Source of the DNA: Nemertoderma westbladi
Lineage: Eukaryota > Animalia > Xenacoelomorpha
Assembly: GCA_032718475.1 (NCBI GenBank)
Contig: JAUCBJ010007224.1
Location: 1 to 64,000, forward strand
Length of the DNA stretch: 64,000 nucleotides
Direction of reading: 5' to 3'
The notes under the pieces were generated by a model. That model saw nothing but the letters and a program-made list of their open reading frames with translations. It did not search any database and had not been told where the DNA came from. Both the position numbers and the translations under genes were made by a program. Positions 3,081 through 34,071 of this stretch are shown here, piece after piece (positions within the stretch are counted from its first letter, which is position 1; every line of letters begins with the position of its first letter).

Positions 3081-3119
3081 TGGTAGCTTTATCGGCTGTC
3101 ATAAAATTATATCGAATTA

Positions 3120-13400: not shown

Positions 13401-14063
13401 AAATTTATGTAACTTAACTCTGTTTACCTTTTTAATGCCGAAATTTTATTGTAATTTAAACTGGAGTAGCCATCTATTTTATTATTTTGTATTATTGATA
13501 GATAGGTCAAAAACTTTTTGGATTGCAATGTTTTAATGATAATATACAGTACTTATGATCTATAATTATACCTTGTAGTACACAACTTATATGAACTACT
13601 TTATATATGCAAAAATTATGCAGTACTTATATACAGTTGTTACGGTATATGGCGCTGTATCCACATTATTAGTCGTTATACTGTATCCACAGTATTAGTC
13701 CGTTATGCAGTATGCAATATTAGTCCGTTATACTGTACGTAATATTAGTCCGTTGTGCAATATAATTATTTAGATAAGGCGCAGTGTGGTGACATTTAGG
13801 TAAGGAAGTTAAAACGCCCATATATTTTGCATCCATTCATTTTGTATAGTATGTAGCCCTACCTACGTAATTTTGTATTAGGATATATGTAGATAGTTCC
13901 AGGGTAGCGAGTTTACTCGGACCCTGGATTTTGTGCTTGCTGATATTAGTTTGATAGGGCTAGCATATAGGGACGCTGTCCTGGCCATTCAGCAGCCAGA
14001 GACGTGATCCATTACCATATATGGTAATAATTTGAGGGCATAGGGCTACAATCCGGCCTCCTT

Positions 14064-14171
14064 ATTGGATTAACTGCTTCCAGGTTGGTCTAATGCTAGC
14101 ATGGACTGGAGAGCCAATAGGATAGCGATTGAGTCACCCTATTGCATCATCCCACCCGGATCACCTATAAA
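14064..14171 (+). promoter_or_regulatory. candidate LTR promoter 1 (CCAAT boxes plus TATA)
   Basis: ATTGG at 14064, CCAAT at 14114, TATAAA at 14166-14171. Confidence 0.55.
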
Positions 14172-14646
14172 TTGGCGGTGTGCCGGTAGAGCCTTACAAC
14201 TCAACCAACATCGATCTGTTCAACCTGTTACGTTACAATTTACTTGCTGAGCTGTCTCTAATTTGTATTAGGATATCGTACTTTCTGCAATTTGCTAATT
14301 TGATTAATTTCGTGAGATGATTTGCTAGTGCGATTACTTTGCTTGTGTTTCTCAATAATTCCTTCGATTACTGCAAATTACAATCGAACTATGATTTCTA
14401 CCTTTGATTGATGGTTCTATGTGATTCTTTTCTGCGCAATAATCCCAAGGGATTCCTGAGACTGTCAGACTTTGTGATTTGCATGCGCCGCTACGGTAGC
14501 TATTAGCGTAATGGAGGGCTAAGGCGCCAGCGGGCGGTGGGCACATCGGGGGGTTGGGCGACTAAGGGAGAGCGGAGGATTCAAAGCGAGCAACGCTGGC
14601 GTGGGGTCACCGTTGCGGTCGGGAAGTTAACGTTGTGGTACGCAGA

Positions 14647-14770
14647 CCAATCGCCGGTACAGTAGTTAGGGGGCTGATGATCCAGGTTTCGTCTCTATTT
14701 AGTATTAGGGGGGCGGGAATCAGGTTAGTTAGGAGTCCTATATGTACCCGGGAGAGGCCTGCACGTATCA
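14647..14770 (+). promoter_or_regulatory. candidate LTR promoter 2 (CCAAT, GC box, TATA-like)
   Basis: CCAAT at 14647, GGGGGCGGG at ~14708-14717, TATATGTA at 14739-14746. Confidence 0.4.
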
Positions 14771-17032
14771 AAACGTTTCGAGCGTTGAGCGTATAGTACG
14801 AATAGTGAGTCGCATAATTGTGGGCTATACAGTAGTTAACTGCATAATTGCGAACTGTGATTGCTGACGCTGATTGGTGTGTTACTGAAGTGTGCCTATG
14901 ATTGTGAATGTTTAGGTAGGCGCTCTTTTCTCTTTGATTGATTTCTATTTCTTAGTTACAATAATTAGTTACTGATTAGGTCAAAGTAATATGGCAATTT
15001 AGGCTATTACTAGCGAAACCTGTTGCGTGATAAATTAGAATTACGTATTCTGGAACTCTTAGTAATTAGTACGCTGTTAAATATTTGTGACTGTAATTGA
15101 TTAGCAAAATTAAGAATTAGTACGCAGCATAGCGGAGAGTAGCTAAAGTAATAATTAAAGTACTGTAAACTATTCACGCTAAGCGGTTATTTGTATTAGC
15201 GGGCAATCAGCTAGAACGCACTATTCGGCACGCACGAAACGCTAGTGATTTGCTGGCCTAAAGCCAGCTGCAGGCAATTTTAGACCCGGAGTGGTACTAT
15301 CCACGAGAGACAATTACTGTACCATTTTTGATATTTAAATATTCTCGCATTCACACATTACGTTAGAGAAACCCCAGTATTCGCGATTAGAAAGACGTAG
15401 GTAATAGCGTGCTTTAATAAGTGATAGAATTAGGCGTAAGAATACTCTGAGTGCAAGGCCTCTCGCACTCGTCTTAAGTAAGCTTAGGGAGCCGACTCGG
15501 GTTTATTGTTTTGGTTATTCCTGCGTGGCTCATAGATTCGAACAGTTAGCTCTCTATTGAGCAATCGGTAGAGAAAGGAACAAGCGATTTTGCAGGAGTT
15601 GTGTAAATTTAGTAAATATATTAGCGGACGGCAGATTAGCGCCATCTAACGGTAAGTAGCGGTTTTGTATTTAGCAACCCTTACAATTTAGTAATATCAC
15701 GCTCCTGAGCCCCTTTACTTAACAGTAGAGCAGTCTTTGTGTCTTATTGGTTAGACGAGAACTTATTAGGTTGGCAGAAGGATATTAACGGGTATTGGTC
15801 TGTTCAACAGTTCTGCTGTTAGTATAGAGGTCGCGGTTGTTTATCACTGATACGTGGTTTATTGGCTGTTGCTTGCAGCGGTCAATAGAGTATTCTTAGG
15901 CTGTTAGTAGTATCATAGTATTAGGCAATAAATTGGAGCACGTGATCGTCTGCTGTAGGCTATAGGCTAGCGTACAGTAAGACATTGAGTTTATTCTATT
16001 AGGTTGTTAGTTTAGATTACTGTATTCACTGGCTGCGTACGATAGTACAGTAGTACATTAGGCTGATTGCTGTTACTGCGTACGGTAGAAGGACATTTGT
16101 TTGCCGTACCACACACAGTATCATTAGGCTGTTAGGTTGGTGTACTGTTTTACTTACTGTACTGCATACAGTGAATGTACGGCAGTGCGTTTTTGCTAAT
16201 TGCGAATACAGCAGTCCTTAGGCCTTCGGGCAAACTGTAATTAGAAAGTTTTTTGAAAATTATTAGCTAGGTTTGCGAGAATTCAGTTTCGGTCAAAATT
16301 ATTTGTAAAATTCTAGAGTTTTGTACCGGTATGTTAGGTAACCGCTTAGTTATTTTATACCATCTGGAGATACATGGCAAGACGGAACTTCTGAGTTTGG
16401 GGTTCGTGTGGGTCTGCGGGTTCGGTTTGCAATCAGCGAAGGGCCTGAATCTTTGGACGCGGACGTGGAATCTCACAGCAAACAAGGTTGGTTGTTCTGT
16501 TGGCACCAGTGTGTTTGTGGAAGCAGTAAAAAATTATCGGTTGTTTAACTGCGAAGCTGAACTCAATTTATTAGTTAGGATATTTAGGTTTAGCCGGCCA
16601 TGGTTTTTTGAATCGCTCAAGTTAGAGAGAGAGTTAGAGAGAGTCGCAACCCGAAGATGTAGCCACGCGCTAGTGGATACATATAATATTTGAAACTAAA
16701 ATTACGTTGATTAGAGCTATACATATAAAATTAGAAATATTCGGGCGGCAAGTTTATTTGAATATTTTGTATTAGATTCAGAGTTATTTTGTGCTATACC
16801 GGTATTTAATACTATATAGTAGCTATATAATAATATTTTTGTTTAAATATTGTGCTAGTATTTGCTATAACTATACCCCATTAAATTCACAATATTGCAT
16901 TGCGAATTTATTTGACATTTGGACCAACTGATTATTTGACAAATAATTTGACCGTATTTTCGGTTAAATTATAATTATATCTCGAACTTTTGCGAGATAT
17001 ATTTTTGCCGGAAGGCAAACATTATTTAGACT

Positions 17033-17860
17033 ATGAGTGTCTCAGACAAGGAGGCACTAGAGGACAGCTATGAGACGGCGGCTGGACCGCCGACTGACGA
17101 TAGCGTAAATGTTACTGTTGATGACAATGCCGACTATGACGACGCAGCGAGTGACGCTGACGTAAGTGAACAGGAGGACGAGACAGTGACTAGTGAGGAA
17201 GAACAACAACCTCAAGTAATAGTATTAGGATCCCCTACCGCTACTGTAAGGAAGGATTGTACAGCAACCCGGACAGAGGTGAGTGATAGGGAGGGTAGTG
17301 TAGCAGAAGCGAGAGCCCGGAGCCCGGTTACCAGACCTGTGGGTATGGTAAGTGCCGTGGTCCCGACGGCTGTAAGGAGTACCCGTAGTTCCCGAAATAA
17401 TCCTTCAAGTCCACCGAGTGTGAGTCAGGTAAGCGAGAGAGAACTTGACATTGCGATAAAGAAGAAACTTCGCGCGCACGCCGGACATATAACTCGGACG
17501 GCGGACAAGGTAAGGAAGATGTTGGCCGATTCAGCGAACATCGACAGGGAAGGGTTAGTAGAGATTAGAAGAGGATATAACTCAGCGTTATTCAAGCAGA
17601 CGGAGGAGCTTGCAGTCCTAGCGAAGAAGGCAGTAGAGTCTCAGTCGAGCGACGTGGCGACGAGGATTTACGACAGGGTTTTAGCAGCCTTGTTGGAGCA
17701 CCGCGAGTTATCAGAGCGACTTCGACGAGTTAGGACGGAGAACTGGCTGCTATGGGCATCACAAGCGCAGGCGACTCAGGTGAGTGACGCAGAGCTGAGA
17801 GACTTAGTGGAGCGTGAAGAGACGCAGGATAAAGAGGAGCGCCGGTACCTAAAGAGGTGA
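17033..17860 (+). CDS. upstream ORF of the BEL element (275 aa; acidic/disordered N-terminus, helical Gag-N-like C-terminus)
   Basis: ATG start; purine-rich coding composition like gag-pol; KLRAHAGHITRTADKVRKML resembles the helical start of BEL Gag. Confidence 0.7.
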   Translation: MSVSDKEALEDSYETAAGPPTDDSVNVTVDDNADYDDAASDADVSEQEDETVTSEEEQQPQVIVLGSPTATVRKDCTATRTEVSDREGSVAEARARSPVTRPVGMVSAVVPTAVRSTRSSRNNPSSPPSVSQVSERELDIAIKKKLRAHAGHITRTADKVRKMLADSANIDREGLVEIRRGYNSALFKQTEELAVLAKKAVESQSSDVATRIYDRVLAALLEHRELSERLRRVRTENWLLWASQAQATQVSDAELRDLVEREETQDKEERRYLKR

Positions 17861-19002
17861 GGTCTCTATAGGGGTGCCGGCAGCAGGCGGCGGCGGACTC
17901 GTGAGGGTCTGGGGGCACGTTAAATCCTCTTCTAAGTGCAAGGGAGATACTGAAGGCCCTCGTGTCTAGCGAACCATGAATTGCCATGGTGCCGTGGTTC
18001 CGTCTAGTCGGCCTGTTGCCGTACTGCCAGTCCTGTACACAGTAGGGGTGGTGGCATGGCGTGATTTGTGGTTCATGTGGTATGAACTGTGATTTGTATG
18101 TGGGCGACCAGTGGCAGTTAGCTTTGGGGCTTGGATGTGTGCCATTGACCGTCAGCTGTTCCGTTTTTTTGATACTATATGTTATTGTCTCCATGTTCAG
18201 CTGATTGGTCTTTGGGGTGTGTTTGGGTCTGAGATGAGCTTTGTCACTGTGGGTGCGTGAGTACATGTGATTGTTTGTATGGCCACTGTGAGTGAGTATG
18301 GGAACCCTTGCCAGTTGGCCCAGACACCGCTGGTATTAGTAGGACCATACTTTACTGCGCCCCAGCATGCTTTGTGCACACAAGTTATTTTACCCTGTCG
18401 GTAAAATAAAGTACTCTCGACTTTCTCATTCTCTCTCAAGTCGATACAACTAGTCCCTCCCGATTTTGACACCGATTTTGTCTTTCCCGATTATGTCTTC
18501 TGTGTGTGCATGGTATGTGTCAGATTTTGTGTTTACCGTAGTGTACTTGATATTGTGAACATCTGTTGAGTACACGTGTACAGGACAGGTAAGTGGTTAC
18601 TTGTTCCTAGCTTTCGAGCTAGTCAGTATTGTTTGCGGAACTTACTTCCCCTCAATACTGCCGGCGAGGCGGGTGAAAACGAGTCAAAATTCCATGTTGG
18701 GTAGCGCAAGCCCACATGGGACAAGACCGTCGGTTAGGCCCAAGGGTGACCTTGGTGCTCGATCGCTATCGACTGGTCCACCCGCCGGTTGACTCTTTGT
18801 TATACTTTGAGTTGGCTCAATGTACAGTCAGGCCACAGTAAGTTGACAGTAGCCGCCCATCTGGCTACAAGTTCGACGAGCTGTGCCGGTGTGATCGGGG
18901 GACCGAAAACAGAACCCGGGAAGCATCGGGCCACCCTCCGGCCCGGTCTGATAATAACATCAGTCAGACTGGCCCCAGGGGTGGTGGGACAGTGTCCGCC
19001 TC

Positions 19003-22000
19003 ATGGGTGCGCCTCCGGCCCGAGGAGCCCAGAAGGACACAAGCGATCAAAGGGAAGTTACTAGCTGGCTGATGCAGAATGGAGTGGTGGTACCAGGCCA
19101 GGTGCTACCGACGACGGAGAACATTCAACAGAGGACGTTGACTCCACCCGACGACGCATCCAGAGACAGTGGCGATTCCCAGGTTAGTCACGCGCGAGGG
19201 AAGGTTATATGTGCTAGATCCCTTGTTTCTCACAACTCGGCGGAGGAGAGAAGACGCCGACTGGACGAACAACAGGCGGAAGTTTTGCGTGCATCGGAAG
19301 CACGGAAGGAAGCCGAGCGGGAACGGGAGCGCACACGTAAGTTAGACGCAAAGTTGCGAGAGTTGGAAGAGAAAGGTAAGCGCGAGCAAGCGGAACGCGA
19401 ACGCAAGGAACGCGAACTCCAGCTCGAACGCGAACAGAAGGAACGCGAACAAAAGGAATACGAACTTCAACTCGAACACGAGCGCAAAGAACGCGAACTC
19501 GAGATCGAGAAGGAGCGATGGGCGTTGTATGAAGAGAAGGCGCGGGTGGAAGAAGAGAGCGCAGCGAGACGAGCGAGGGAAGAAGAAGAACGTAAACTGG
19601 CGCAGTTGGAAAGTGCGAGATTAAGTTTAGAGAGCGAAGAACGGACTAGGAAGGCGAATGAAATCGCCGAGAAGGGGATGCGAATGATCGAAGAATGTGG
19701 GGCGAGTGTAGGGACAGAGTTGCGAGAACTGTTCGCACTGCAGAAGGCCGAACAGGAAGCGAGAACTCCGACCATACGCGAGTCAACGACGACCAGAATT
19801 CCTATACCCGGTCCAGCTATTACGAGTACACGGATCGTTAAACCGTTCTCTACATATCGCACGCCAGTTGGTATTAGTGCTTCACCCATCGCTCAGGATC
19901 TACGTCATCGGAACGCCGCACCACTGTATACCGAACGAGACAACGGAGAATTTAGAGAAGAAACTCCGACGGGCCGAGTATTTGGCGAACCGAACCCGCG
20001 GTTTTGGAATGCGCGGACGGAGCGCCGACCCAGTTCGACGGAGAACTTCCGGGTTAAACCGGAAGAGGGATCATATGAGAGACAGCGGATTACTCAGATA
20101 GAGCCGACTATACAACAGAACCCTAGCCAGGAATTTATTACGAGGGATGAGTTGAGTGCTAGTTTAGCGCAAGCTATATCGCCGCACATCCAACCTATAA
20201 CGGATATGCTTAGTAACCTACGGTTAAAGGAAGCAGCCCAGGTAAGAAGTAATTCTAATCCTAGCAGGCCTGAGTTAGATAAAGTCCAGCCTAGTCAACG
20301 AGTACGCATATCGGAGGAGACTATACCACATAGACCTCAGGTAAGGACGCCTGTCCCGAATATTCATAATCCTAATTTCGAAAACTCAGCCGAGAAATTT
20401 ATTCAGGAGGCTTGGGTCAGGGCTTCGGCGCGCAAACCATCGCGAGCGCTAAGGACTGACACCGAGTCAAGTGATGAAGAGGAAGACATGAGACGTCAGA
20501 AGTCCCGAAACTATAAGGAAAGAAGGACCGACGCGGAGCAGGTAAGTTGGAACCACCGGGAAAGGACCAGACTTAACAACCCTGCGGAACTAAACCATTT
20601 GTTAACCCGGAACGACGCAACCCTTAGGGACATAGGTAAGTTTGCTGCTAGGCAAGGACTGCCGACGCAACAACCCCAGAAGTTTATGGGTAACCATAAG
20701 CATTGGAGGACCTTTAGAACCTATGTCGACGAGCAGCTAACCAACAGCACCTTTACTCCCAACGAGAAGTTCAACTATTTGCTTCAGATGCTCCATCGAG
20801 AACCTAGAGCCATTGCTGACAACTTCGTCGGCAATGAAAGAGCATTCGAGTTAGCGATGAAGACGCTTAGCGACATCTACGGGAATAAAACCAAGATGGC
20901 GCAGTCGATAGTAGAAGACTTGGGTAAGGGCGGAAGGATTACAACTCCGTTAGAGCTGTTGAACTTAGCGAACGCTATTTCGAACGCATTGGACATCTTG
21001 AGGACGGTGAATCTACCTCATCATGGTGATCACGCCGAAGTTTTGAAGAGTGTAATAAGACGTCTAAACATGCGTTATCGACAGAAATGGCGCAAATTAG
21101 AGAATAAGTTGGAGGGTCAAGGTAAAGTATTGACACTTCAGCATATTCATGACATGATAGCCACAGACGCAGTAGCAGAGATGAAATCAAACTTCTCAGA
21201 AGAGAATATGAGAGAGTCTAAACCTGTTACCGGTAAGTCTATGGTAAGTTTTGACGATGACAGGACCACTGTGACTTATAACTCAGTAGACAGATATAAT
21301 TCGAGTACCCCAGCCTTTAGATCAGACTCGCGAGTATGGTCAGGTGAGCGGTTAGATAGACCTAGGTTAAAGCAACAGGAGTTGCCGGATGGATTTGTAG
21401 GTTGCCAATACTGTTTACTAAAGGAGGTAAGATCCGACGACCATAAGTTGGATAGTTGCAGACGGTTCAAAGAATTAAATTCGGAACAGAGAAGAGTTCA
21501 AGTGCGGACGTTGGACACCTGTTGGGCTTGTCTTGCGCCAGGACATGTACGGCGGCAGTGCCCGAACAGCAAGGACGGATGCATGGAATGCGGCAGACTA
21601 CATCACAAGTTGCTACATGCGGATTTCCATACCCCAACGGACCGTTACTTACAGCGAAATCCTCACAGGAAGGGGAGCAAAGAACCCGTATCGATAAGGA
21701 GGAATACGTACACTGGCATCCAGGACGATGGTTACCAACCAGGTTCGTCGGACGAAGATGGCGAGTCGAGCGCGAGAGAAGTGACCTGCCAAGGTTTCAC
21801 CGCGGATAGTTCATCGACCAGCGCGCGGACGTATTTATCATCGGCAACGTCGGAAATATTTAGCGTGATTCCGGTGAAACTCACTGGCGATAAGGGATCG
21901 AAGCGAATATATGTGATGTTGGACACTGCGTCCACATTATCTTATATCGACGAAGAAGTGGCGAGAGCCGTTTCTAGCTTCCAGGACGCCGAGGAGATCC

Positions 22001-25000
22001 AAATAGAGTTGAAGTCTATGCATGGGGTAGGAGACCTCAAGGGACACAGAATTTCGGTAGAACTAGATTCCCTACTTCCGAGAGACCAGCACACTCGACA
22101 AGAACGGAAAGCTTTGCCATTGGACGGATTTAAGTGTCTAGCTATGAAGGGATTCGGCAGGCAGTTAGGTAAGGTGCCGCCGATGAGTCCCATAGCACAG
22201 GAGTATTTTGACAAGCTCAGGATACCCAGACACCAGGTAGGTTATAGGAATGTTTCTATGTTGATTGGTGCAGAACAGCTGATCGCACACCAAATATGGG
22301 AAACGAGACCAGCTGAGCCGCATGTCAATGGACCACATGCCCATAGGACCATACTAGGTTGGTATACACGAGTACCCATGTCTTATAAGTTTACAGGTGG
22401 CGACAAGCCAATGAACAGATACGATGAATTACAGCCTATAACTCAACCACCGTTAGTAAAACCACCAGACATAGACGAGTTTAGGAGAACCTGTATTGAC
22501 CACTATAGTGACTTTAGCGAGTCGGACGAGGAGTTGATTCCCGATAATGTTAGGTTGTCGGAACCACTTCATAATGACCGGACAGATAGTGAACCCGAGG
22601 ACTACTGTTATCAGACCCGTGGGTCTGGTTCAGCGGCCCACGCTACTTATCTAACTAACGTTTTGACTTATACAGACATAGTGGAGGGTCAAGTGGCTAA
22701 ATATCGAGACCTAGACATTTTCCAATACAGTGAGGAGGAATTACAGAAGGAATTGATACGCCAGGACCTCGAGACAGGAGCCAGAACTGTCGAATGGCTG
22801 GATAGGGACGCAATGGAACCCGGTGGATATGACCTAGCCATGTCTACTGATGAGAAAAGGTCGCTGGAGATGATGGAAGACACCATACGTCTGCTACCGA
22901 CTGGACATTTTGAAGTTGGAATGTTGTGGCGTCGACAACCACCTAAGTTGGAGAACAACTACAGCTTAGCCTTGAAAAGATTAAACGGAGTAAGGGCTCG
23001 GTTGTTGAAGAATCCGGACATTAGGGAGAAGTATTGCGCCCAGATCAACAACTATTTCGCCAAGGGATTTGCTGGGAAGGTAGAGGACCCTGACTTAGTG
23101 ACAGACCAGACTTATTACCTTCCACACCACTATGTGACTCACCCTGACAAACCTGACAAAGTCCGAGTAGTCAACGACTGCGCAGCAGTCTATAGAGGTA
23201 TGTCCCTGAATTCAGAGTTGATGGATGGTCCCAACCTGAACAACTATTTGATTGGAATACTGTTGCGTTTTAGACAGCGGCGATTCGCATTTACTTGTGA
23301 CATCGAGGCGATGTTCCACCAGGTAAGAGCCTGTAAGGCAGACCAGGATAGCCTTCGATTTCTCTGGTACGAGAATGAAGACTTATCCGGCCCAGTGGTT
23401 ACATACCAGATGTACGTTAGGATATTTGGCGCCCGCGATAGTCCGAATGGCACGCTGTTCGTTTTAAAGAAAACGGCAACAGCCCAGATTGGTAAGTATC
23501 CAGTAGAAGTAATCGAGTCCATCTTGAGAAACTTCTATATGGACGACGGATTGGTGTCCAAGGACACGGCGGAAAAAGCCATAGAAGTGGCTCACGGCCT
23601 GCAAGAGTGCTTGGCTACAGGGGGTTTCCCTCTAACCAAGTTCACTACGAACTCGGAGGCCCTATTAGAATCGTTCCCGGTAAAGGATCGCGGGAGCGGA
23701 GACATAGAATTGGGGGTAGAACCAATCCCCATGGCGCGAGTACTGGGACTCGCTTGGAACCCGAACTCAGATAAGTTCCAGGTAAGAGTTAGATTTGAGC
23801 CCAGTAGCCCAGACAAAGTTTTGACAAAGAGGATTTGCTTATCGACATTAAGTAGACTATTTGACCCGATGAACTTTATCAGTCCGGTTATATTACAGGC
23901 ACGAGCGTGCATGAGGAAAATTTGGTTGTCCGACGTAGAGTGGGACGAACCAATATCTCCTATACATGCAAGGCAGTGGAGAGAGTGGGAAGCCGAGTTG
24001 CATCTATTGAAAAATATAGATGTACCCCGTTCCTACTTTCCGAATCAGCTGGTATTTCCAGCTGATCTCGAACTCCACTTATTTAGTGACGCAAGTGACA
24101 CCGGCTTTGGTATGGTAGCCTACCTTCGCCGAGAGGTAAGTCAGGACAAGTTTGAGACGGCCTTTGTAACTTCTAGATCAAAGACAATGCCGGTCAAATA
24201 CATGACTGTCCCTCGTGCAGAGTTACAGGCGGCTGTAGTTTCGGTCGAGGTAAGTAAGCAAATATCTGAGGAATTAGACACGACATTGACCTTATTTTAT
24301 TGGACGGACGCATCCTTGGTGTTAGTATACATTGCGGCCGACAATATTGCACTAAAGACATTTGTGGCCAACAGACGCGCTCAGATCGTCGATTTTTCGA
24401 CGAAGGAACAATGGAGACATTGTCCGGGAGTGTTGAACCCGGCCGACATAACTTCGAGAGGTGCAATGCCGGCGGAATTTTGTCAGGAAGAGTCGCAGGA
24501 GTTTTGGTTGCATGGACCTGATTTTCTAACGAGGACACAGGAACATTGGCCAGAGCGACTAAAGATAGTGACCAATCCGATGCCTGAAGATGCAGAAGTC
24601 AAAGTGGAGAAAGTCTCTAAGTCGAAGTCTAAAGCCAAACTTAAGTCATTGGAGCGGCCTGAAAAGTCATTGGAGCGGCCTGAAGAGTCATTGGAGCGGC
24701 CCGGAGACCTGTCAGACCAACAGACTTACGTGACTACTAGGTCAGGAAGGGTAAGTTACGACGTAAAACCACCCTTACAGACTAAACCGGAGTCACAGTT
24801 GGTAAGTGACGGACAGAAAATGACCGACACAATGGATCCTTTGGTTTCCAAACCTGCGGGTTTGGATTCGAAACTTCCATTAGTTAGCGGACAACCGTCG
24901 CTGGCATTAGAGTCACGCAGTGTTTATGACAAATTACTAAATTCGTCTGCCTCTTGGCTGACAATTTGTAAAAGAACTGCGTGGTTAAGCCGATACGTTT

Positions 25001-26517
25001 CGTACCTTTGTTTAAAACATTCGAAACATTTGAGAGAACCATTGAGCACCAATAGTGAGCGAATTCAGAAATTGAAACAACCTCTGACAGAGGATGAGAT
25101 TGATCAAGCGGAATTAAAGCATTTGAAGCATTATCAAATGTGTGCCTTCCCTAAAGAATTCCATCTATTATCGGCTCAACGACCAGTTCTCTATAAACCC
25201 CTTAGAAAATGGAGTCCATTAATCCATAAGGGTTTAATTTGTCATAGATCGAGAATCCAGACTGTCGACATAAACTCACAGTTTAGGTTCCCAGTGATAA
25301 TCCCTAGTCACCCAATAGAATTGCAAAGGGCGATTCTATGGGATATACACAAGAGGTTGCATCACGCGGGAAAGTTACACTGTTTGTCGGCAGCGAGACA
25401 GCGATTCATTCTATTGCAGCCAAGCAGGGCAGTAGGCACTATGTACGACGCCTGTCTGGTTTGCAAGAGGGTGAACGCCAGAGTATTGGAACAGGAGATG
25501 GCTGAACTCCCGGAAGCGAGAGTGCAGGCATATGACCCACCTTTTACGAACACAGGGGTGGATTGTTTTGGTCCGATTGAAGCAAAGAGTGGACGGCTGA
25601 CCCACAAGCGATGGGGTCTGCTACTGACATGCATGGCTAGTAGAGCCATACACATCGAGCGTGTGGCAGACATGTCGACCAAATCTCTGCTCCTGGCTTT
25701 AAAGAGATTTATGGCCAGGAGAGGACTAGTAAAGGCGTTCTACTCCGATAAGGGTACAAACTTTGTCGGAGGGAATAGCGAGTTGAACGCGGCTCATAAA
25801 GCAGCACAGAATAAGGAAATTTCTGCAGCACTTTTGCCGCAAAGAGTAGAATGGAGATTTAATACTCCAGAAAGTCCTTGGAGAGGAGGAAGTTGGGAGC
25901 GTTTGGTTCGCTCTGTAAAGCAGGCTATTGCCAAAACATTGCCTGTGAACAAACAACTTACCGACGACGAACTGGTTACAGCTTTCATTGAAATCGAGCA
26001 TACCCTAAACTCGAGGCCGATAGCTATGTTGCCAGACGGTGTTGCATTAACGCCGAATCATTTGCTAATGCAGAGTCCAGCATTTCTTGTGCCGGCATCA
26101 GAACCCGTTAGTGCCGACCTATATAGTCGTAAGAGCTGGAAAGTAACACAATTAGTCGCGTACACATTCTGGGAATATTGGCGGGAATACTATCTTCCCA
26201 CCATATCCACCAGAACAAAGTGGTACAAAACGGTTCGGAGTCTCCAAAAGGGAGATTACGTATTGATAACCGAACCCATTGTCAAGAGAAGGTATTGGGA
26301 GACTGGAGTTATCTTGCACACACACCCAGACGTGCAAAACATAGTGCGCACAGTCACTGTGAAAATTAGGTGCAAGTGTCCGCACCCAAAAAAGTGTAAA
26401 ACTAATGGTTTACACACCTTGGACCGACCGGTCCAAGATATTGTGTTATTAGAGGAGACACGTATCGAGACGGGAGATTATAATTTGTCTCCTGCCTCAA
26501 AACAGAATCAGTGTTGA
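19003..26517 (+). CDS. BEL/Pao Gag-Pol polyprotein (2504 aa)
   Basis: E/R/K coiled coil; capsid-like KFMGNHKHWRTF..EKFNYL; BEL triple Zn knuckle (CQYC..H..C, CWACLAPGHVRRQC, CMECGRLHHKLLH); protease LDTAS; RT DIEAMFHQV and FYMDD; RNase H FSDAS, VPRAEL, WTDA, NPAD; integrase HHCC, GVDCFGP, SDKGTNF, GGSWERLV; order PR-RT-RH-IN. Confidence 0.97.
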   Translation: MGAPPARGAQKDTSDQREVTSWLMQNGVVVPGQVLPTTENIQQRTLTPPDDASRDSGDSQVSHARGKVICARSLVSHNSAEERRRRLDEQQAEVLRASEARKEAERERERTRKLDAKLRELEEKGKREQAERERKERELQLEREQKEREQKEYELQLEHERKERELEIEKERWALYEEKARVEEESAARRAREEEERKLAQLESARLSLESEERTRKANEIAEKGMRMIEECGASVGTELRELFALQKAEQEARTPTIRESTTTRIPIPGPAITSTRIVKPFSTYRTPVGISASPIAQDLRHRNAAPLYTERDNGEFREETPTGRVFGEPNPRFWNARTERRPSSTENFRVKPEEGSYERQRITQIEPTIQQNPSQEFITRDELSASLAQAISPHIQPITDMLSNLRLKEAAQVRSNSNPSRPELDKVQPSQRVRISEETIPHRPQVRTPVPNIHNPNFENSAEKFIQEAWVRASARKPSRALRTDTESSDEEEDMRRQKSRNYKERRTDAEQVSWNHRERTRLNNPAELNHLLTRNDATLRDIGKFAARQGLPTQQPQKFMGNHKHWRTFRTYVDEQLTNSTFTPNEKFNYLLQMLHREPRAIADNFVGNERAFELAMKTLSDIYGNKTKMAQSIVEDLGKGGRITTPLELLNLANAISNALDILRTVNLPHHGDHAEVLKSVIRRLNMRYRQKWRKLENKLEGQGKVLTLQHIHDMIATDAVAEMKSNFSEENMRESKPVTGKSMVSFDDDRTTVTYNSVDRYNSSTPAFRSDSRVWSGERLDRPRLKQQELPDGFVGCQYCLLKEVRSDDHKLDSCRRFKELNSEQRRVQVRTLDTCWACLAPGHVRRQCPNSKDGCMECGRLHHKLLHADFHTPTDRYLQRNPHRKGSKEPVSIRRNTYTGIQDDGYQPGSSDEDGESSAREVTCQGFTADSSSTSARTYLSSATSEIFSVIPVKLTGDKGSKRIYVMLDTASTLSYIDEEVARAVSSFQDAEEIQIELKSMHGVGDLKGHRISVELDSLLPRDQHTRQERKALPLDGFKCLAMKGFGRQLGKVPPMSPIAQEYFDKLRIPRHQVGYRNVSMLIGAEQLIAHQIWETRPAEPHVNGPHAHRTILGWYTRVPMSYKFTGGDKPMNRYDELQPITQPPLVKPPDIDEFRRTCIDHYSDFSESDEELIPDNVRLSEPLHNDRTDSEPEDYCYQTRGSGSAAHATYLTNVLTYTDIVEGQVAKYRDLDIFQYSEEELQKELIRQDLETGARTVEWLDRDAMEPGGYDLAMSTDEKRSLEMMEDTIRLLPTGHFEVGMLWRRQPPKLENNYSLALKRLNGVRARLLKNPDIREKYCAQINNYFAKGFAGKVEDPDLVTDQTYYLPHHYVTHPDKPDKVRVVNDCAAVYRGMSLNSELMDGPNLNNYLIGILLRFRQRRFAFTCDIEAMFHQVRACKADQDSLRFLWYENEDLSGPVVTYQMYVRIFGARDSPNGTLFVLKKTATAQIGKYPVEVIESILRNFYMDDGLVSKDTAEKAIEVAHGLQECLATGGFPLTKFTTNSEALLESFPVKDRGSGDIELGVEPIPMARVLGLAWNPNSDKFQVRVRFEPSSPDKVLTKRICLSTLSRLFDPMNFISPVILQARACMRKIWLSDVEWDEPISPIHARQWREWEAELHLLKNIDVPRSYFPNQLVFPADLELHLFSDASDTGFGMVAYLRREVSQDKFETAFVTSRSKTMPVKYMTVPRAELQAAVVSVEVSKQISEELDTTLTLFYWTDASLVLVYIAADNIALKTFVANRRAQIVDFSTKEQWRHCPGVLNPADITSRGAMPAEFCQEESQEFWLHGPDFLTRTQEHWPERLKIVTNPMPEDAEVKVEKVSKSKSKAKLKSLERPEKSLERPEESLERPGDLSDQQTYVTTRSGRVSYDVKPPLQTKPESQLVSDGQKMTDTMDPLVSKPAGLDSKLPLVSGQPSLALESRSVYDKLLNSSASWLTICKRTAWLSRYVSYLCLKHSKHLREPLSTNSERIQKLKQPLTEDEIDQAELKHLKHYQMCAFPKEFHLLSAQRPVLYKPLRKWSPLIHKGLICHRSRIQTVDINSQFRFPVIIPSHPIELQRAILWDIHKRLHHAGKLHCLSAARQRFILLQPSRAVGTMYDACLVCKRVNARVLEQEMAELPEARVQAYDPPFTNTGVDCFGPIEAKSGRLTHKRWGLLLTCMASRAIHIERVADMSTKSLLLALKRFMARRGLVKAFYSDKGTNFVGGNSELNAAHKAAQNKEISAALLPQRVEWRFNTPESPWRGGSWERLVRSVKQAIAKTLPVNKQLTDDELVTAFIEIEHTLNSRPIAMLPDGVALTPNHLLMQSPAFLVPASEPVSADLYSRKSWKVTQLVAYTFWEYWREYYLPTISTRTKWYKTVRSLQKGDYVLITEPIVKRRYWETGVILHTHPDVQNIVRTVTVKIRCKCPHPKKCKTNGLHTLDRPVQDIVLLEETRIETGDYNLSPASKQNQC
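24643..24702 (+). repeat. in-frame 21-bp tandem repeat x3 (KSLERPE)
   Basis: AAGTCATTGGAGCGGCCTGAA repeated in the RNase H-integrase linker. Confidence 0.9.
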
Positions 26518-27273
26518 ACGCAACTCACTTCGTATGCATTCCTCGTATGCAAATACAAGGAGATGCATAGGAGCGGGGTTGTGGTTGATTTGCGTTGAGT
26601 TTTGTCTGGTGGGTATCAAAACAAAATTTTATTTTCAAAATTTTTGGAAAATTAAAAAATTTTAAAAAATTAGAAGTGAACCCAAGACAATTCCAGACGC
26701 TGTGTATAGACGCATTTTGAATTCGTCTATAGATAAACAGTAATTTGAAAAGTCGTGAAGCCTGGAAAATAGCATTTAGAAACCATGGTGACGGCTATAT
26801 TACGTAGGAGTGTAAATTGAGTTTAGCAACTTCCACAGATTGGTGCCAACAGTACAACTAAGGTACTAAAGGTTAGTAGCACCAGAGGCGTACATGGACC
26901 CCACTCAGTAGTTTGCAGGATGTGTGATGTTCGATTATCAAACCTGTGGGTTTGGTATAGTCGAGTATTGTGGCTATAGTCCTTTCTAACTACTGTAGTT
27001 TAGTACGAGTAATGGGAGTAGTTTGGGCATCAAAAAGTGAGTTGGTCACGGCCAGTTTATCTCCAAAGTTTTTGCGCTATGCATGGGAATAGGTTAGAGG
27101 ATAGTTAGTTAGGAAGAGACGGGATCTAGAGAGTCGAACCTGAACTGCTGGAAGGCGGGGGGGGGGTTCGGGAGGTCTGTCCTTCGGCGACATCTAACTG
27201 ATTTACCCACAGTGTAATTGGTTACGTAACGGCACTTATTGGGATATATATATATGTATATACGCGTAACATA

Positions 27274-30200
27274 ATGGAGAGGGATATTAGAGCGCAACCG
27301 CGCAGAGGATTTACTGCCAGAGAGGAGGCGGAGCTACCATTCGCGCGACCGGGATGTAAAGATTCGAACGTTTACTACCATGGGCGGTCCGTGATGGAGC
27401 TGAACGGGAAGTATAAGCCGAGTTATGATAAAGAATTACGGAGAGAAAGAATGAGAGCGTTGGGGGACCGGATGGAAGTCTTGCGGAGAGAGTATCGCAC
27501 GCGGTATCCCTACGACTTTGCTTTGGACGTGTGTGACATTAGCGCAGATCCGGACGAGGAAATCGCACGACTATACCATATGAATATGTATTTACGACAC
27601 GAGGAGCCTCTACCTGCAGTCCGAGACCAGTTTGACGGAATGCATCTGTATCGGAGGACTCGAGGCGAGGATCAGGAGACGCCGAAAGTCTTCAGGGTAT
27701 ACAAGCTCTTCTACAAGTGTGGTGAATGCATGAATAAACAAGACGTGGCGATTCCCGACCGACTAGACGAGCAACATCCGGAACCGATATTAACGCGATG
27801 TCCAGCTCACCAATTCCTTAGATACAACGAGGGAGGTTACCCGATGAGCAACCCGATGATCAGTATCGACTTCAGCGGAAAGCGACCTCCGAGACCCATT
27901 ACGCCGACCGTTACGACATTAGATCCGTATACGGAGATTAAACCCTGTTCGACACCCAGTTTGATAGAGACGGCAGCGGCCATTTCGCTGTACCGAGCCT
28001 ACAAGGATCTAGAGGCGCGGCGCGAAGCGGCGCGGGACTCGGGTACCAAACCCGCGGGTTTGGAGCTCTCGAGTCCCTGGACTGCGTTTACTTCACCTCA
28101 CCGAGTGAGAAGCCTCACGCCTGAGCATCAGGACGACATAGACGCGTTGCGGCAGGAGGAGCGAGCGGCGAAGGCGAAGGAGTTATTCGAGAACAGGATA
28201 GCAGAGTATAATAAGACCGCGGATAGACATCAAGAGGAGACGAGGAGAGTGACCGGATTTGTTCCACAGGTCGTATCTCAACCCGGACCGGTGTATTATT
28301 CCGACGGCACCGAACCTGCGATATTAGTAGATCATCCGGAGTCGCGAGAAGCGATACGATTCTTGCCGATGGTAAGAATGGCGGACCATTGGAACGTTGA
28401 CTGTCTACGGGAAGTTTTATGCGCGAAGTTCTTGCGTGATGTCCCAATGCAGATCACAGATTATGACACCTTGGACAAGATTGGAGCTCCGGGGAAGGAG
28501 AGTAAGTTATTCGGATGGTTGGATAAGTACATCAAGGTATGGGTCGCGGTGGCTACATTCCCAGACGACGAGGAAGTAGACCAGACGTGGCTGAGGAGGA
28601 AGGGTTCTTATACCCGATATGATGACCACAAGGCGATCGAGCGCATGTGGACCCCATCAGATGAGATTCAGCGTCAGTGGAGGAAAACGGAGGAATCACT
28701 GCAGGATTGGAGAGTGATGTTCTACGACAATGAAGGAGGGTCCCATCAGGAATGCTTGACCAGCAAGTGTATTCAAATTCGTGCGGCCGATGGTGTGACT
28801 CATGTGTTTATGCGTGTGAGGGCGGATAGAGAGAGACCGGAGCCCATCATAACGACACAATATCGGAAAGGGAAGGATCCTAGGGAACAGATTTTGGAGG
28901 TATGCAGGCGAGGAGGTATGCACGGAGCGGAGCGTATCGACGCCAGGATGTTACCCAAGAAAGTTAGAGAGGCTATTCTCAACCAAGATTACGTCAAGGT
29001 GGGATCGGGAGTCCAGAGCGATTTGGAGAGCGACTTCAACGCCATGACTGATCTGGAAGATAGATTGCCGAGACCGTTTGTCGACACCAAGCTATTGTTG
29101 CTATGGGCACAGGATATTGGAATTTATAGGGAGTATCCCAACTCTGCCAAGACTGGTATGGGCTTTATAGCACACTTGTTGTATAATTGGGACTTTAAGT
29201 TAAAGACGCAGAAGAAGTATGAGGAGGCGTATGGCGAATACAACACGCCACCGGGAGCGGAGTTCAAATCCCACTTCAAGCGGCAAGCGTTAGTGTATTG
29301 GAACATTTGCGCGCCACCCCGTGCGTCGCTACAATATTATTTGGTGCTTGAGTCGAACACGGTGACTTGTTTATTAGCGGATATCGTTGCGCGAGTTTTG
29401 AAGCGTCATCCATTGGTATTCGGAGGAGATCAATACGTTCGCTCGAAAGGGGGAATCCAATCCGACGTGATGAAGCGTTTCTTAACCCCGTTCTTCAACC
29501 AATCGTTAGAGAATACGTCGATGGTGAGGAGAGGATTAGCGATATTCGAAGGAGTATATCGACAGAACATCGGAGATTTGGGAGACCGACCGTCGATGGA
29601 ATATCCGACGCCAGAAGCTTTGGAGAAGTGGTTCGGGAATCAAACCCGCGGGTTTGGTACTCCCTTCCACTCGGAGGCTGATAGACCTGTTAAGGAGGGC
29701 TGGCCGGAGACGTTAGTAGAGGTGTTCGGAGTAGATCTTCCGGTGGAGAAGACATATCCGAAACGAACGCGGGAGGAAATATTGGAGATAGAGGACAAGG
29801 GCGAGGATGTTTACTTTGTTCCGGATCGACAACCGTTGACCGGAGAGGACGACATCGTATTAGACATTGGGAAGGAAGGAAGTGCGAAACCGATTGGAGA
29901 CCTCATATACGAGAGGGCCTGGTTTCCACAAGCGCGTAGGTGCAAATTGTGCGGCAGCACAAGGCACAATCTAAAGTCGTGCGACGCGGTAATAGAGGCG
30001 GCGCATAAGGTCTGTCGTTGGTGTAATGAGACCGACCATTCGTTTCACACGTGCACCGTCTTCATTTCTCAATGTGGATATTGTGGAGTAAAAGGACACC
30101 GTAGCGCGAGATGTCAGCTGCGAGATGATTCCTTTCAAAACCATAGCGCTAACCTACTTCGGGAGATGTTAGATAAGTGGGAGAGTGTGGCGGATTACCA

Positions 30201-30981
30201 TATTCAAGCGCAGATGCGTTGGTTACCATTTAAAGCGGGATATGGGTTTTGGGCGGTAGACCCATCGCATGTTGCGTACGAGCCATATCTACAATCGCTA
30301 CCACAATATCAGGAGCTCATCCTAACTGCTCAAGACCTTCCACAGAACACTGGAGTTATCGTAGTCCGAGAATACTTCAGACAACTGAACATGGACAATA
30401 AGTACACATGGAACTTCGTTGCTATTTGCGATCGCATCACGAAGGGTGTATTTACGGAGACTAGAAAAGTGGTACGCGCGCGAGGTGATTGGAGGATGGC
30501 GGCTATACAATACCGCAACGAATTCTTGTTGACTCATGTGCCAGTGGGTTCATTGACCGCCGAGAGGATACAGGAACAAAGGATCGCAGCGACCACAGCG
30601 ACGACCGCTGGAGCTCAAGGCTCGCGGAAAGAACCAGGAGGAGGGGTCCAAGACAAGCGTCAAGTCAAGGACGATCACTATCATTCAATTATAGAAGCTC
30701 AACGATTGCAGCGCAAGGCGCAGGGAGCGTCGGAGAAGGCGCGAGCGCAACTGCATAAGGAAGAGTTGGCGGAAGCGACCACGGGAGCGCGACAATTGGG
30801 ACGAGGCCGAGGGAGAAGTTCGAGCCGAGAATCTGTCGGGGCTCAGGGAACATCGTCGCCGGTTCCGGGGAGTGACGCCTCACGGACGCCGTCAACGGAG
30901 TCGACTAGAGGACGACTGGTGTATCTGGGAAGAGGGCGAAAAAGGGGAGCGAGCCCAAAGAACCCAGGAGCGGGTCGATAA
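27274..30981 (+). CDS. accessory ORF of the BEL element: DEDD(y)-type 3'-5' exonuclease domain plus 3 CCHC zinc knuckles (1235 aa)
   Basis: ExoI FYDNE (28720-28734); CIQI; LPKKVREAILNQDYVKVGSGVQSD (ExoII); FVDT; KTGMGFIAHLLYNWDFK; YWN...LQYYLVLE (ExoIII-like). Knuckles CKLCGSTRHNLKSC, CRWCNETDHSFHTC and CGYCGVKGHRSARC at 29941-30114. Basic GRGR-rich tail. Confidence 0.85.
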   Translation: MERDIRAQPRRGFTAREEAELPFARPGCKDSNVYYHGRSVMELNGKYKPSYDKELRRERMRALGDRMEVLRREYRTRYPYDFALDVCDISADPDEEIARLYHMNMYLRHEEPLPAVRDQFDGMHLYRRTRGEDQETPKVFRVYKLFYKCGECMNKQDVAIPDRLDEQHPEPILTRCPAHQFLRYNEGGYPMSNPMISIDFSGKRPPRPITPTVTTLDPYTEIKPCSTPSLIETAAAISLYRAYKDLEARREAARDSGTKPAGLELSSPWTAFTSPHRVRSLTPEHQDDIDALRQEERAAKAKELFENRIAEYNKTADRHQEETRRVTGFVPQVVSQPGPVYYSDGTEPAILVDHPESREAIRFLPMVRMADHWNVDCLREVLCAKFLRDVPMQITDYDTLDKIGAPGKESKLFGWLDKYIKVWVAVATFPDDEEVDQTWLRRKGSYTRYDDHKAIERMWTPSDEIQRQWRKTEESLQDWRVMFYDNEGGSHQECLTSKCIQIRAADGVTHVFMRVRADRERPEPIITTQYRKGKDPREQILEVCRRGGMHGAERIDARMLPKKVREAILNQDYVKVGSGVQSDLESDFNAMTDLEDRLPRPFVDTKLLLLWAQDIGIYREYPNSAKTGMGFIAHLLYNWDFKLKTQKKYEEAYGEYNTPPGAEFKSHFKRQALVYWNICAPPRASLQYYLVLESNTVTCLLADIVARVLKRHPLVFGGDQYVRSKGGIQSDVMKRFLTPFFNQSLENTSMVRRGLAIFEGVYRQNIGDLGDRPSMEYPTPEALEKWFGNQTRGFGTPFHSEADRPVKEGWPETLVEVFGVDLPVEKTYPKRTREEILEIEDKGEDVYFVPDRQPLTGEDDIVLDIGKEGSAKPIGDLIYERAWFPQARRCKLCGSTRHNLKSCDAVIEAAHKVCRWCNETDHSFHTCTVFISQCGYCGVKGHRSARCQLRDDSFQNHSANLLREMLDKWESVADYHIQAQMRWLPFKAGYGFWAVDPSHVAYEPYLQSLPQYQELILTAQDLPQNTGVIVVREYFRQLNMDNKYTWNFVAICDRITKGVFTETRKVVRARGDWRMAAIQYRNEFLLTHVPVGSLTAERIQEQRIAATTATTAGAQGSRKEPGGGVQDKRQVKDDHYHSIIEAQRLQRKAQGASEKARAQLHKEELAEATTGARQLGRGRGRSSSRESVGAQGTSSPVPGSDASRTPSTESTRGRLVYLGRGRKRGASPKNPGAGR

Positions 30982-31468
30982 TACATTATGGCACAGGGCG
31001 ACAGACTCTAGATATATACATCATCGTCGCTCTGATGTATATTGTAGCATTTGAAAATCTTCGACTAGACTCATATACACTAGTTGAGTTATTTGAATTT
31101 ATATTATGAAAGAGGCGAAGGAAGTGATTGGGGAGACAAACCTGCGGGTTTGGCTTACTCCTTTCACTTGCCCTAGCAAAATTTTTTATATATTTGATTT
31201 TGTATGTAGTAATCATTATGTAGAATGAACGAGAAACAATATTTTGTAAATTTAATTTGTATGTAATAATCGTTAAATAATGAGAGAGATAATATTTGTA
31301 AATTTAATTTGTATGTAATTCATTATGCAATATCTATGGCAATATTTGTAAATAGTAGAATTATTATGTTATTTAGATTGGTTGGAAGAAATTTATTTTG
31401 TTTTGTATACATCACCTTATACTCTTCTACAATTGGAGGGAAACATAATATGATTTCCCTTGGAGCGG

Positions 31469-33677
31469 TGTTACGGTATATGGCGCTGTATCCACATTAT
31501 TAGTCGTTATACTGTATCCACAGTATTAGTCCGTTATGCAGTATGCAATATTAGTCCGTTATACTGTACGTAATATTAGTCCGTTGTGCAATATAATTAT
31601 TTAGATAAGGCGCAGTGTGGTGACATTTAGGTAAGGAAGTTAAAACGCCCATATATTTTGCATCCATTCATTTTGTATAGTATGTAGCCCTACCTACGTA
31701 ATTTTGTATTAGGATATATGTAGATAGTTCCAGGGTAGCGAGTTTACTCGGACCCTGGATTTTGTGCTTGCTGATATTAGTTTGATAGGGCTAGCATATA
31801 GGGACGCTGTCCTGGCCATTCAGCAGCCAGAGACGTGATCCATTACCATATATGGTAATAATTTGAGGGCATAGGGCTACAATCCGGCCTCCTTATTGGA
31901 TTAACTGCTTCCAGGTTGGTCTAATGCTAGCATGGACTGGAGAGCCAATAGGAGAGCGATTGAGTCACCCTATTGCATCATCCCACCCGGATCACCTATA
32001 AATTGGCGGTGTGCCGGTAGAGCCTTACAACTCAACCAACATCGATCTGTTCAACCTGTTACGTTACAATTTACTTGCTGAGCTGTCTCTAATTTGTATT
32101 AGGATATCGTACTTTCTGCAATTTGCTAATTTGATTAATTTCGTGAGATGATTTGCTAGTGCGATTACTTTGCTTGTGTTTCTCAATAATTCCTTCGATT
32201 ACTGCAAATTACAATCGAACTATGATTTCTACCTTTGATTGATGGTTCTATGTGATTCTTTTCTGCGCAATAATCCCAAGGGATTCCTGAGACTGTCAGA
32301 CTTTGTGATTTGCATGCGCCGCTACGGTAGCTATTAGCGTAATGGAGGGCTAAGGCGCCAGCGGGCGGTGGGCACATCGGGGGGTTGGGCGACTAAGGGA
32401 GAGCGGAGGATTCAAAGCGAGCAACGCTGGCGTGGGGTCACCGTTGCGGTCGGGAAGTTAACGTTGTGGTACGCAGACCAATCGCCGGTACAGTAGTTAG
32501 GGGGCTGATGATCCAGGTTTCGTCTCTATTTAGTATTAGGGGGGCGGGAATCAGGTTAGTTAGGAGTCCTATATGTACCCGGGAGAGGCCTGCACGTATC
32601 AAAACGTTTCGAGCGTTGAGCGTATAGTACGAATAGTGAGTCGCATAATTGTGGGCTATACAGTAGTTAACTGCATAATTGCGAACTGTGATTGCTGACG
32701 CTGATTGGTGTGTTACTGAAGTGTGCCTATGATTGTGAATGTTTAGGTAGGCGCTCTTTTCTCTTTGATTGATTTCTATTTCTTAGTTACAATAATTAGT
32801 TACTGATTAGGTCAAAGTAATATGGCAATTTAGGCTATTACTAGCGAAACCTGTTGCGTGATAAATTAGAATTACGTATTCTGGAACTCTTAGTAATTAG
32901 TACGCTGTTAAATATTTGTGACTGTAATTGATTAGCAAAATTAAGAATTAGTACGCAGCATAGCGGAGAGTAGCTAAAGTAATAATTAAAGTACTGTAAA
33001 CTATTCACGCTAAGCGGTTATTTGTATTAGCGGGCAATCAGCTAGAACGCACTATTCGGCACGCACGAAACGCTAGTGATTTGCTGGCCTAAAGCCAGCT
33101 GCAGGCAATTTTAGACCCGGAGTGGTACTATCCACGAGAGACAATTACTGTACCATTTTTGATATTTAAATATTCTCGCATTCACACATTACGTTAGAGA
33201 AACCCCAGTATTCGCGATTAGAAAGACGTAGGTAATAGCGTGCTTTAATAAGTGATAGAATTAGGCGTAAGAATACTCTGAGTGCAAGGCCTCTCGCACT
33301 CGTCTTAAGTAAGCTTAGGGAGCCGACTCGGGTTTATTGTTTTGGTTATTCCTGCGTGGCTCATAGATTCGAACAGTTAGCTCTCTATTGAGCAATCGGT
33401 AGAGAAAGGAACAAGCGATTTTGCAGGAGTTGTGTAAATTTAGTAAATATATTAGCGGACGGCAGATTAGCGCCATCTAACGGTAAGTAGCGGTTTTGTA
33501 TTTAGCAACCCTTACAATTTAGTAATATCACGCTCCTGAGCCCCTTTACTTAACAGTAGAGCAGTCTTTGTGTCTTATTGGTTAGACGAGAACTTATTAG
33601 GTTGGCAGAAGGATATTAACGGGTATTGGTCTGTTCAACAGTTCTGCTGTTAGTATAGAGGTCGCGGTTGTTTATCA
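31469..33677 (+). repeat. 3' LTR (2209 bp)
   Basis: Direct repeat of 13638-15846, followed by the TSD ACAGT. Confidence 0.97.
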
Positions 33678-34071
33678 ACAGTATTCACAATAAATGCAAT
33701 ATAAATGCTACTTATATGTCATTAATAACAGTATTATATTACCTATTAAATTATATTTTTGTTATTTTCGGGTTTTAGGACTATAATAAGGAAAAAACAA
33801 CATGCATGTACACATTTATATTATTATATTATCAAATTAATATATTTATATGACATTTATTAGAGGCGATTTATAATTTCATCATATTGCTGTGACACAC
33901 CTACAATAAATTATTCTGACACATAGATTGCCTATTAATATAAATAAATATTGACAATTGTAATCAGGAGATATATAATTAAAGTATTAAAATTTCCATA
34001 GATTTTCTAGTATATTATATTTATTATTGTTTTTTAGGGACAATGAGATCAGGTCGGGTTGGTTCTATTAA

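Follow-up and report, generated by a model that had tools for sequence, protein, structure and literature searches.

A predicted DEDDy exonuclease with tandem zinc knuckles, encoded in the env position of a 20-kb BEL/Pao retrotransposon of Nemertoderma westbladi

DnaQ-like exonucleases are well-known accessory domains in retrotransposons with long terminal repeats (LTRs) (Morozov et al., PMC6338049), and DEDDy genes have been described in bdelloid LTR and Penelope-like elements (PMC5408684) and in Dada DNA transposons (PMC3706591). The bdelloid LTR elements Juno and Vesta, as well as Athena elements, carry an open reading frame (ORF3) for an RNase D-like DEDDy nuclease with the acid motif DEED, a kind of nuclease that, according to Rodriguez et al. 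(2017, PMC5408684), had earlier been unreported in retrotransposons; this account is repeated in reviews (PMC5718144, PMC6431247). A DEDD nuclease combined with zinc knuckles, a pairing called very unusual, is found in trypanosome RNase D (TbRND; Gao et al., PDB 7c42/7c45). Its four CCHC knuckles are required to bind RNA and to cleave it efficiently, and its over-expression depletes a small-RNA class (PMC7797062). BEL/Pao elements (Belpaoviridae) are described by the virus taxonomy committee ICTV as 4.2-10 kb long, with LTRs of 0.2-1.2 kb, and their gene content is described as gag, pol and env only (PMC8742986). Here we analysed a window of 64,000 nucleotides from N. westbladi (assembly GCA_032718475.1, contig JAUCBJ010007224.1, positions 1 to 64,000, forward strand), which holds an intact BEL/Pao element of twice that size. 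Between its gag-pol ORF and its 3' LTR lies a gene, likewise called ORF3 (27274-30981, + strand), whose product, on the analysis given below, is probably an active, knuckle-guided 3'-5' RNA exonuclease.

ORF3 is stop-free, lies on the sense strand and encodes 1235 aa, which can be divided as follows.

27274-28620 (+): N-terminal extension of about 450 aa, with CxxC..CxxH at 27718-27810 (motif scan; no homologue coverage)
28621-29433 (+): predicted 3'-5' exonuclease domain of DEDDy fold (family profile, structure model)
28726, 28732, 29020, 29338 and 29350 (+): predicted catalytic positions D485, E487, D583, Y689 and E693, respectively (alignment)
29941-30114 (+): three tandem CX2CX4HX4C zinc knuckles, residues 890-903, 914-927 and 934-947 (motif scan, profile)
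30166-30258 (+): post-knuckle motif conserved in the family (alignment)
30781-30978 (+): basic, RG-containing low-complexity tail, ending near RGRKR (composition)

An earlier note, made from the letters of the window alone, had described an intact sense ORF of this length between pol and the 3' LTR that was not env-like, and the translation, the mapped gag-pol ORF and LTR and the hydropathy profile agree with it. The peak 19-residue hydropathy is 1.34, which indicates no transmembrane segment, and the N-terminus is charged; an env or fusion glycoprotein was ruled out on these two grounds. All of the motifs named in the note were located, at residues 149-179 (CxxC..CxxH), 484 (YDNE), 576 (VGSGVQSD), 602 (FVDT) and 688 (YYLVLE), as were the three knuckles (starting at 890, 914 and 934, with not even one knuckle in any of 2000 protein shuffles) and the RG-rich basic tail (17 K/R versus 7 D/E in the last 85 residues; five RG in the last 60), whose RGRKR end is a possible nuclear signal. 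The Asp of FVDT (D604), which the note had listed with the motifs of the DEDD-family domain, occupies a conserved non-canonical position that aligns with ‘DLR’ of EXD2 and ‘DTQ’ of Egalitarian, and the predicted acids are those listed above. An origin of the knuckles from the element’s own Gag was also considered and rejected, as their spacing differs and BEL polyproteins scored E 0.012 or worse, compared to 1e-3 to 1e-15 within the family.

The nuclease was not detected by Pfam, PHROGs or a single-sequence PDB search; its detection needed homologues and a structure model. A 669-residue model was poor overall (predicted local distance difference test, pLDDT, 42), yet only DnaQ-like chains matched it, while a model of the nuclease alone was fair (pLDDT 68.5, predicted template modelling score 0.70). 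In the VIA structural search, all 50 of the listed rows were DnaQ-like nucleases or polymerase proofreading domains. The top rows were tied (apPol, diDNase, two Nibblers and WRN; Z 13.1-13.3, root-mean-square deviation 3.2-3.7 over 171-188 residues), so that no cellular donor can be named, and EXD1 (Z 12.4), RNase D (12.3), TbRND (11.7), Rrp6 (11.6) and Egalitarian (11.5) followed below. Foldseek returned EXD2 as the best match (E 3.4e-5), the structural matches among viruses were phage polymerases and 3'-5' exonucleases of giant viruses, with identities of 8-18%, and the Atlas returned PF01612-bearing clusters for the nuclease domain (0.91). With the family profile, both EXD2 (E 0.006) and Egalitarian could be aligned across Exo I, II and III, with the D-x-E of Exo I and the D of Exo II at D485, E487 and D583. 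Exo III reads Y689-x3-E693, which is acidic but has Glu where the DEDDy pattern Y-x3-D has Asp. From these alignments, the catalytic set is predicted to be D485/E487/D583/E693 with Y689. We regard the modelled DnaQ-like DEDDy fold of the domain as settled, which agrees with the group that the earlier note had named (WRN, EXD, Nibbler, Egalitarian and RNase D).

Relatives of ORF3 were collected by a full phmmer scan of 1.84 billion representative proteins, with residues 401-999 as query and E up to 1e-3. The scan gave seven matches of 514-715 aa, all unnamed, in clusters of one or two members and from contigs of 2.5-11 kb. No named, conserved host gene was among them, a pattern that would fit mobile-element genes better than a core host gene. 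All seven homologues share the order of nuclease-like domain, variable linker, knuckles and a conserved motif ending in G-F, in which A973, G991 and F992 are invariant in all eight rows. They are without the N-terminal extension of ORF3, which found no match in Pfam, PDB sequences or a set of 129 proteins either; as no homologue spans its CxxC..CxxH, this is, on sequence, a candidate metal site only. An HRDC domain following the nuclease, as in Rrp6/EXOSC10-type enzymes, had no Pfam match in ORF3 or the seven homologues; in this part of ORF3 the structure model has low confidence. A nuclease-only alignment was made of the window ORF3, five homologues and the post-intron part of L001, the contig of homologue P0007 (left out were P0005, which is decayed, and P0010, which duplicates P0007). 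All six rows that reach D485 and E487 keep both; D583 is present in 7 of 7 rows and Y689 in 6 of 7. At position 693, three of the seven rows have E and four have D. Overall, the four acids are kept in 7 of the 8 distinct family proteins (the window ORF3 included, thus six of the seven homologues) at roughly 20% identity. P0005 has lost them, and next to its decayed active site it carries two complete knuckle-plus-motif modules.

The only homologue with readable genomic DNA is L001, a contig of 2486 bp that holds the gene alone and no pol. A predicted 91-nt GT-AG intron (L001:504-594) separates an in-frame F-D-L-E (Exo I), located upstream of it, from the rest of the homologue, and P0007 begins behind this intron; an intron is unexpected for a gene passed through RNA. 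Scans of viral contigs and genome contigs gave no relative, and the metagenome scan gave this single locus from 157 candidate stretches. A word-index protein search with ORF3 found nothing (proteins of 679-2162 aa), and with the 8-row alignment it found P0003 itself alone.

In order to compare sibling copies of the element, we used a public run (X1) whose contigs are of uncertain type, have a depth below 5 and may contain errors, which would bias the counts towards replacements. X1 covers 29 of 30 bins of the element, mostly at 95-99% identity. Four contigs cover ORF3 with 20 differences over 1947 bases, 18 of which are listed: 16 are synonymous and 2 are replacements (ratio of replacement to synonymous polymorphism, pN/pS, 0.036-0.049; binomial p value 4e-9 to 1e-7), while two gag contigs gave 19 synonymous versus 4 replacement differences. 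ORF3 is under purifying selection as strong as that on gag. The earlier note had named as refuting outcomes the lack of a DnaQ-like fold, and an ORF that is absent from sibling copies or evolves neutrally; neither was the case. The N-terminal extension holds most of the listed differences (14 of 18; 13:1 synonymous to replacement), which shows that this orphan region is coding and needed, and only one lies inside the nuclease domain. The divergence of the copies (1-4%) is much greater than that of the two LTRs (0.05%), so the differences most likely arose between replicating lineages. In addition, the codon usage of ORF3 tracks that of gag-pol (r 0.55) and not that of the neighbouring Gypsy and long interspersed nuclear element (LINE) ORFs (r -0.20 to -0.41), which fits a long residence in the element. 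No joints were seen in three public runs (contigs of uncertain type), and no listed contig links pol to ORF3.

The carrier is a complete and intact LTR retrotransposon of 20,040 bp (13638-33677) that belongs to the BEL/Pao group.

13633-13637 (+): left target-site duplication ACAGT (flank inspection)
13638-15846 (+): 5' LTR, 2209 bp, TG...CA (LTR-LTR comparison)
17033-17860 (+): extra upstream ORF, 275 aa (ORF list, codon usage)
18958-26517 (+): BEL/Pao gag-pol ORF (Pfam domains, homologue search)
27274-30981 (+): ORF3, 1235 aa, intact, under purifying selection (translation, sibling-copy comparison)
31469-33677 (+): 3' LTR, 2209 bp, TG...CA (LTR-LTR comparison)
33678-33682 (+): right target-site duplication ACAGT (flank inspection)

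The two LTRs have a sole mismatch (14123/31954), and the element is young. Its gag-pol ORF has 2519 codons from stop to stop (first ATG at 19003), contains three Cys-His boxes in the Gag part and matches DUF1759, Peptidase_A17 (E 1e-38), rve (integrase) and DUF5641, which is the BEL/Pao set. Over the region of reverse transcriptase (RT) and RNase H, identity to the best-listed 120 of the 806 matches is 38-43%, and all 120 carry PF05380; the few named members among them come mostly from marine invertebrates. The layout LTR-gag-pol-LTR, the order of protease, RT, RNase H, then integrase, and the 5-bp target duplication, a length typical for BEL/Pao, are as in other Belpaoviridae. The element differs from them in a length about twice that described (20,040 bp versus 4.2-10 kb, a range that is descriptive and not a criterion of descent), in LTRs of 2.2 kb versus 0.2-1.2 kb (PMC8742986), in a nuclease gene where env would be, and in the extra upstream ORF.

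This upstream ORF, located between the 5' LTR and gag-pol, is intact, with an acidic N-terminal half, a helical-looking C-terminal half and a GT donor-like site at its end. It matched no family in Pfam or PHROGs, and its codon usage resembles that of gag-pol (r 0.56). As a candidate split-off N-terminus of Gag, it scored no better than shuffles with a profile of 94 BEL N-termini, a profile that also missed the element’s own Gag. The ORF could be a first Gag exon that is joined by splicing, or else another accessory gene. No Rfam entry matched within 13500-33800, and five tRNA primer-site motifs that were looked for do not occur immediately after the 5' LTR (the BEL/Pao type is an 18-nt site for tRNA-Arg or tRNA-Gly). 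The bases found there (15848-15856) have a 9-nt perfect complement inside the LTR (14762-14770), and 10 of 400 control sites reach at least 9 nt; together with the lack of a recognised tRNA site, this is a weak hint of self-priming. A split self-primer across an LTR intron was rejected, as its 8 nt are at chance level. A GGAGCGG run occurs twice, about 50 bases past the pol stop (26565-26580) and directly ahead of the 3' LTR (31455-31470), and the first could be the relic of a purine tract that predates the gain of ORF3.

The ORF3 proteins of the bdelloid elements Juno and Vesta and of Athena/Terminon elements are similar to the one described here in that each is a stand-alone, non-env ORF past pol that encodes an RNase D-like DEDDy nuclease with an altered acid motif and no transmembrane segment. 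Juno and Vesta are Ty3/gypsy-like, unlike the BEL/Pao carrier of the present gene. The acid motif is DEED in bdelloids and D-E-D-E here, a difference in the fourth acid, and the bdelloid LTRs measure 159-551 bp compared to 2209 bp. By its published description, Vesta has a Cys-His-Cys motif in two ORFs, and the main text of the bdelloid paper mentions no tandem knuckles in ORF3. Purifying selection is evident for the window ORF3, whereas in PMC5408684 variation was examined only in env- and GDSL-type ORFs.

TbRND shares with ORF3 a DEDD exonuclease followed by tandem CCHC knuckles, and its knuckles match the family profile (E 8e-5). However, TbRND is a cellular enzyme that trims guide RNAs, and its four knuckles follow the nuclease at a distance of about 28 residues, whereas ORF3 has three knuckles about 170 residues past it and, in addition, the post-knuckle motif, the 450-aa N-terminal extension and the basic tail. 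The two domains are 14% identical over the aligned part, and TbRND is absent from the nuclease-profile matches at E up to 10; the likeness is one of architecture and does not establish a common origin of the fusion. For one homologue, the best Atlas cluster was a euglenozoan exonuclease-CCHC family (cosine 0.86, 163 shared features), which we take as a lead only. ORF3 is thus TbRND-like by architecture and bdelloid DEDDy ORF3-like by location, and a shown member of neither clade. The cellular nucleases EXD2, Nibbler (MUT-7), WRN-exo, EXD1 and Egalitarian have the same fold and motif order, EXD2 being the best by profile and Foldseek, but are only 7-16% identical, and the matched chains are without this knuckle module. 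Dada transposons also encode a DEDDy exonuclease, but there the domain lies inside a DDE transposase and was proposed to process DNA ends (PMC3706591).

Given the bdelloid Juno and Vesta ORF3s (PMC5408684), the accessory DnaQ domains (PMC6338049) and the TbRND fusion (PMC7797062), the earlier note went too far with its candidate for an undescribed system, whose novelty it rested on the stand-alone architecture. Novel, to the extent that our searches cover the field, are BEL/Pao as the host, the triple-knuckle family and the size of 20 kb; a nuclease ORF3 as such was already known. Nematode BEL elements of the Cer7 type are said to have an RNase D-like domain, which would be a BEL precedent. 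Literature searches, with most subscription papers, Repbase and GyDB outside their scope, found no BEL/Pao exonuclease gene, and the word ‘exonuclease’ is not mentioned in the BEL/Pao-related papers PMC3118150, PMC554778, PMC2774666 and PMC13524379.

Regarding the mechanism, we propose that ORF3 would be translated on its own, from a sub-genomic message, that the three knuckles would bind single-stranded RNA so that its 3' end reaches the active site, and that the nuclease would over-trim or destroy small RNAs of host silencing, or precursors of these that are unprotected. By analogy to TbRND, the substrate would be RNA and not DNA, and the knuckles would be the grip on it. This whole chain, with host small RNAs as the target, is put forward tentatively. 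Similar DEDDy genes occur in elements with unlike copying chemistry, which may point to a shared outside problem such as silencing; this recurrence and the depletion of small RNAs upon TbRND over-expression are the reasons why host small RNAs were ranked as the likeliest target.

Several points weigh against this proposal. Mature PIWI-interacting RNAs (piRNAs) bear a 2'-O-methyl end that resists such enzymes. The bdelloid DEDDy ORF3s have no clear link to copy number, and the ORFs are still covered by small RNAs (PMC5408684). The modelled fold does not separate RNA from DNA nucleases, as WRN, diDNases and proofreading domains tie with Nibbler. At the predicted fourth acid, 3 of the 7 aligned rows have Glu, a change on whose effect we found no paper, and the Asp of TbRND that matches it is critical (PMC7797062). 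With its lost acids and doubled knuckle module, P0005 indicates that binding can persist without catalysis. The selection signal comes mostly from the N-terminal extension, and a transposon as carrier is established for this window alone and not for the homologues. We regard it as possible but doubtful that ORF3 is one of a widespread and so far unnamed group of knuckle-guided exoribonucleases that are carried by transposons and that animal mobile elements would use, as an enzymatic counter-defence, to destroy or mis-trim piRNA or small interfering RNA guides; the group would be convergent with trypanosome RNase D and carried here on a giant BEL/Pao element.

An alternative explanation is that the same knuckle-guided exonuclease acts on the element’s own RNA, where it would trim the primer or the 3' end of the genomic RNA or clear leftovers of RNase H, probably co-packaged through its nucleocapsid-like knuckles. 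The knuckles of ORF3 resemble those of Lin28 and of retroviral nucleocapsids, 3'-end processing was proposed for the bdelloid DEDDy ORFs (Rodriguez et al., PMC5408684; Arkhipova & Yushenova, PMC6431247), and a self-made primer that needs trimming is conceivable from the unrecognised tRNA site and the 9-nt LTR complement. We consider this rather unlikely, since BEL/Pao elements described with gag, pol and env only (PMC8742986) do not generally need an ORF3 for replication, and since the 9-nt complement is weak and the split-primer test remained at chance. It is unlikely that the scaffold is catalytically weak or dead and that the protein serves as an Egalitarian- or EXD1-like RNA-binding adaptor that escorts, localises or shields element RNA. 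In its favour, the structural matches include both proteins, the fourth acid is Glu instead of Asp, P0005 retains its knuckle modules beside a decayed active site, and the basic tail and the long selected extension could make protein contacts; the four acids and the Exo III Tyr, however, are conserved across the remote family in a pattern of selection for catalysis. Quite improbable is a DNA exonuclease that would proofread reverse transcription or tidy the ends of the complementary DNA and thereby allow a 20-kb element, by analogy to nidovirus ExoN. The excess over the 4.2-10 kb of the family and the tie of WRN and polymerase proofreading domains for the best structural match would suit such an enzyme, but ORF3 is separate from Pol, the nuclease profile was unmatched in 121 BEL polyproteins (best E 1.6), and tandem CCHC knuckles indicate single-stranded RNA in one solved case (PMC7797062). 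Finally, a recently captured host gene that is a passenger without a role for the element is very improbable and already largely refuted, for although L001 with its predicted intron and no pol looks as a host gene might, the gag-strength selection between copies far more diverged than the LTRs, the gag-pol-like codon usage and the lack of a named, conserved host gene among the matches all contradict it.

Beyond the element, a satellite of about 22 kb occupies positions 35640-58000, with units of 30 and 34 bp and a GC skew near 0.65; ORFs that fall within this satellite are repeat artefacts. Directly past it, a Ty3/gypsy-type gag-pol (58391-62689, + strand) consists of two adjacent ORFs in different frames with RT, RNase H and integrase. 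At 2316-4358, an array of 59-bp tandem repeats precedes an A-rich ORF for a reverse transcriptase, which is probably part of a broken LINE.

What nuclease genes do in the place of env has been a standing question since 2017. To this question the present case adds purifying selection between copies, an active site conserved across a remote family and, with TbRND, a close architectural model, and the element itself doubles the size range given for BEL/Pao. If small RNA is the target of the knuckle-guided exonuclease proposed here, ORF3 would be a rare case of an enzyme with which an animal retrotransposon counters silencing; if the target is the element’s own RNA, it would be an extra step in the poorly understood replication cycle of BEL/Pao elements.

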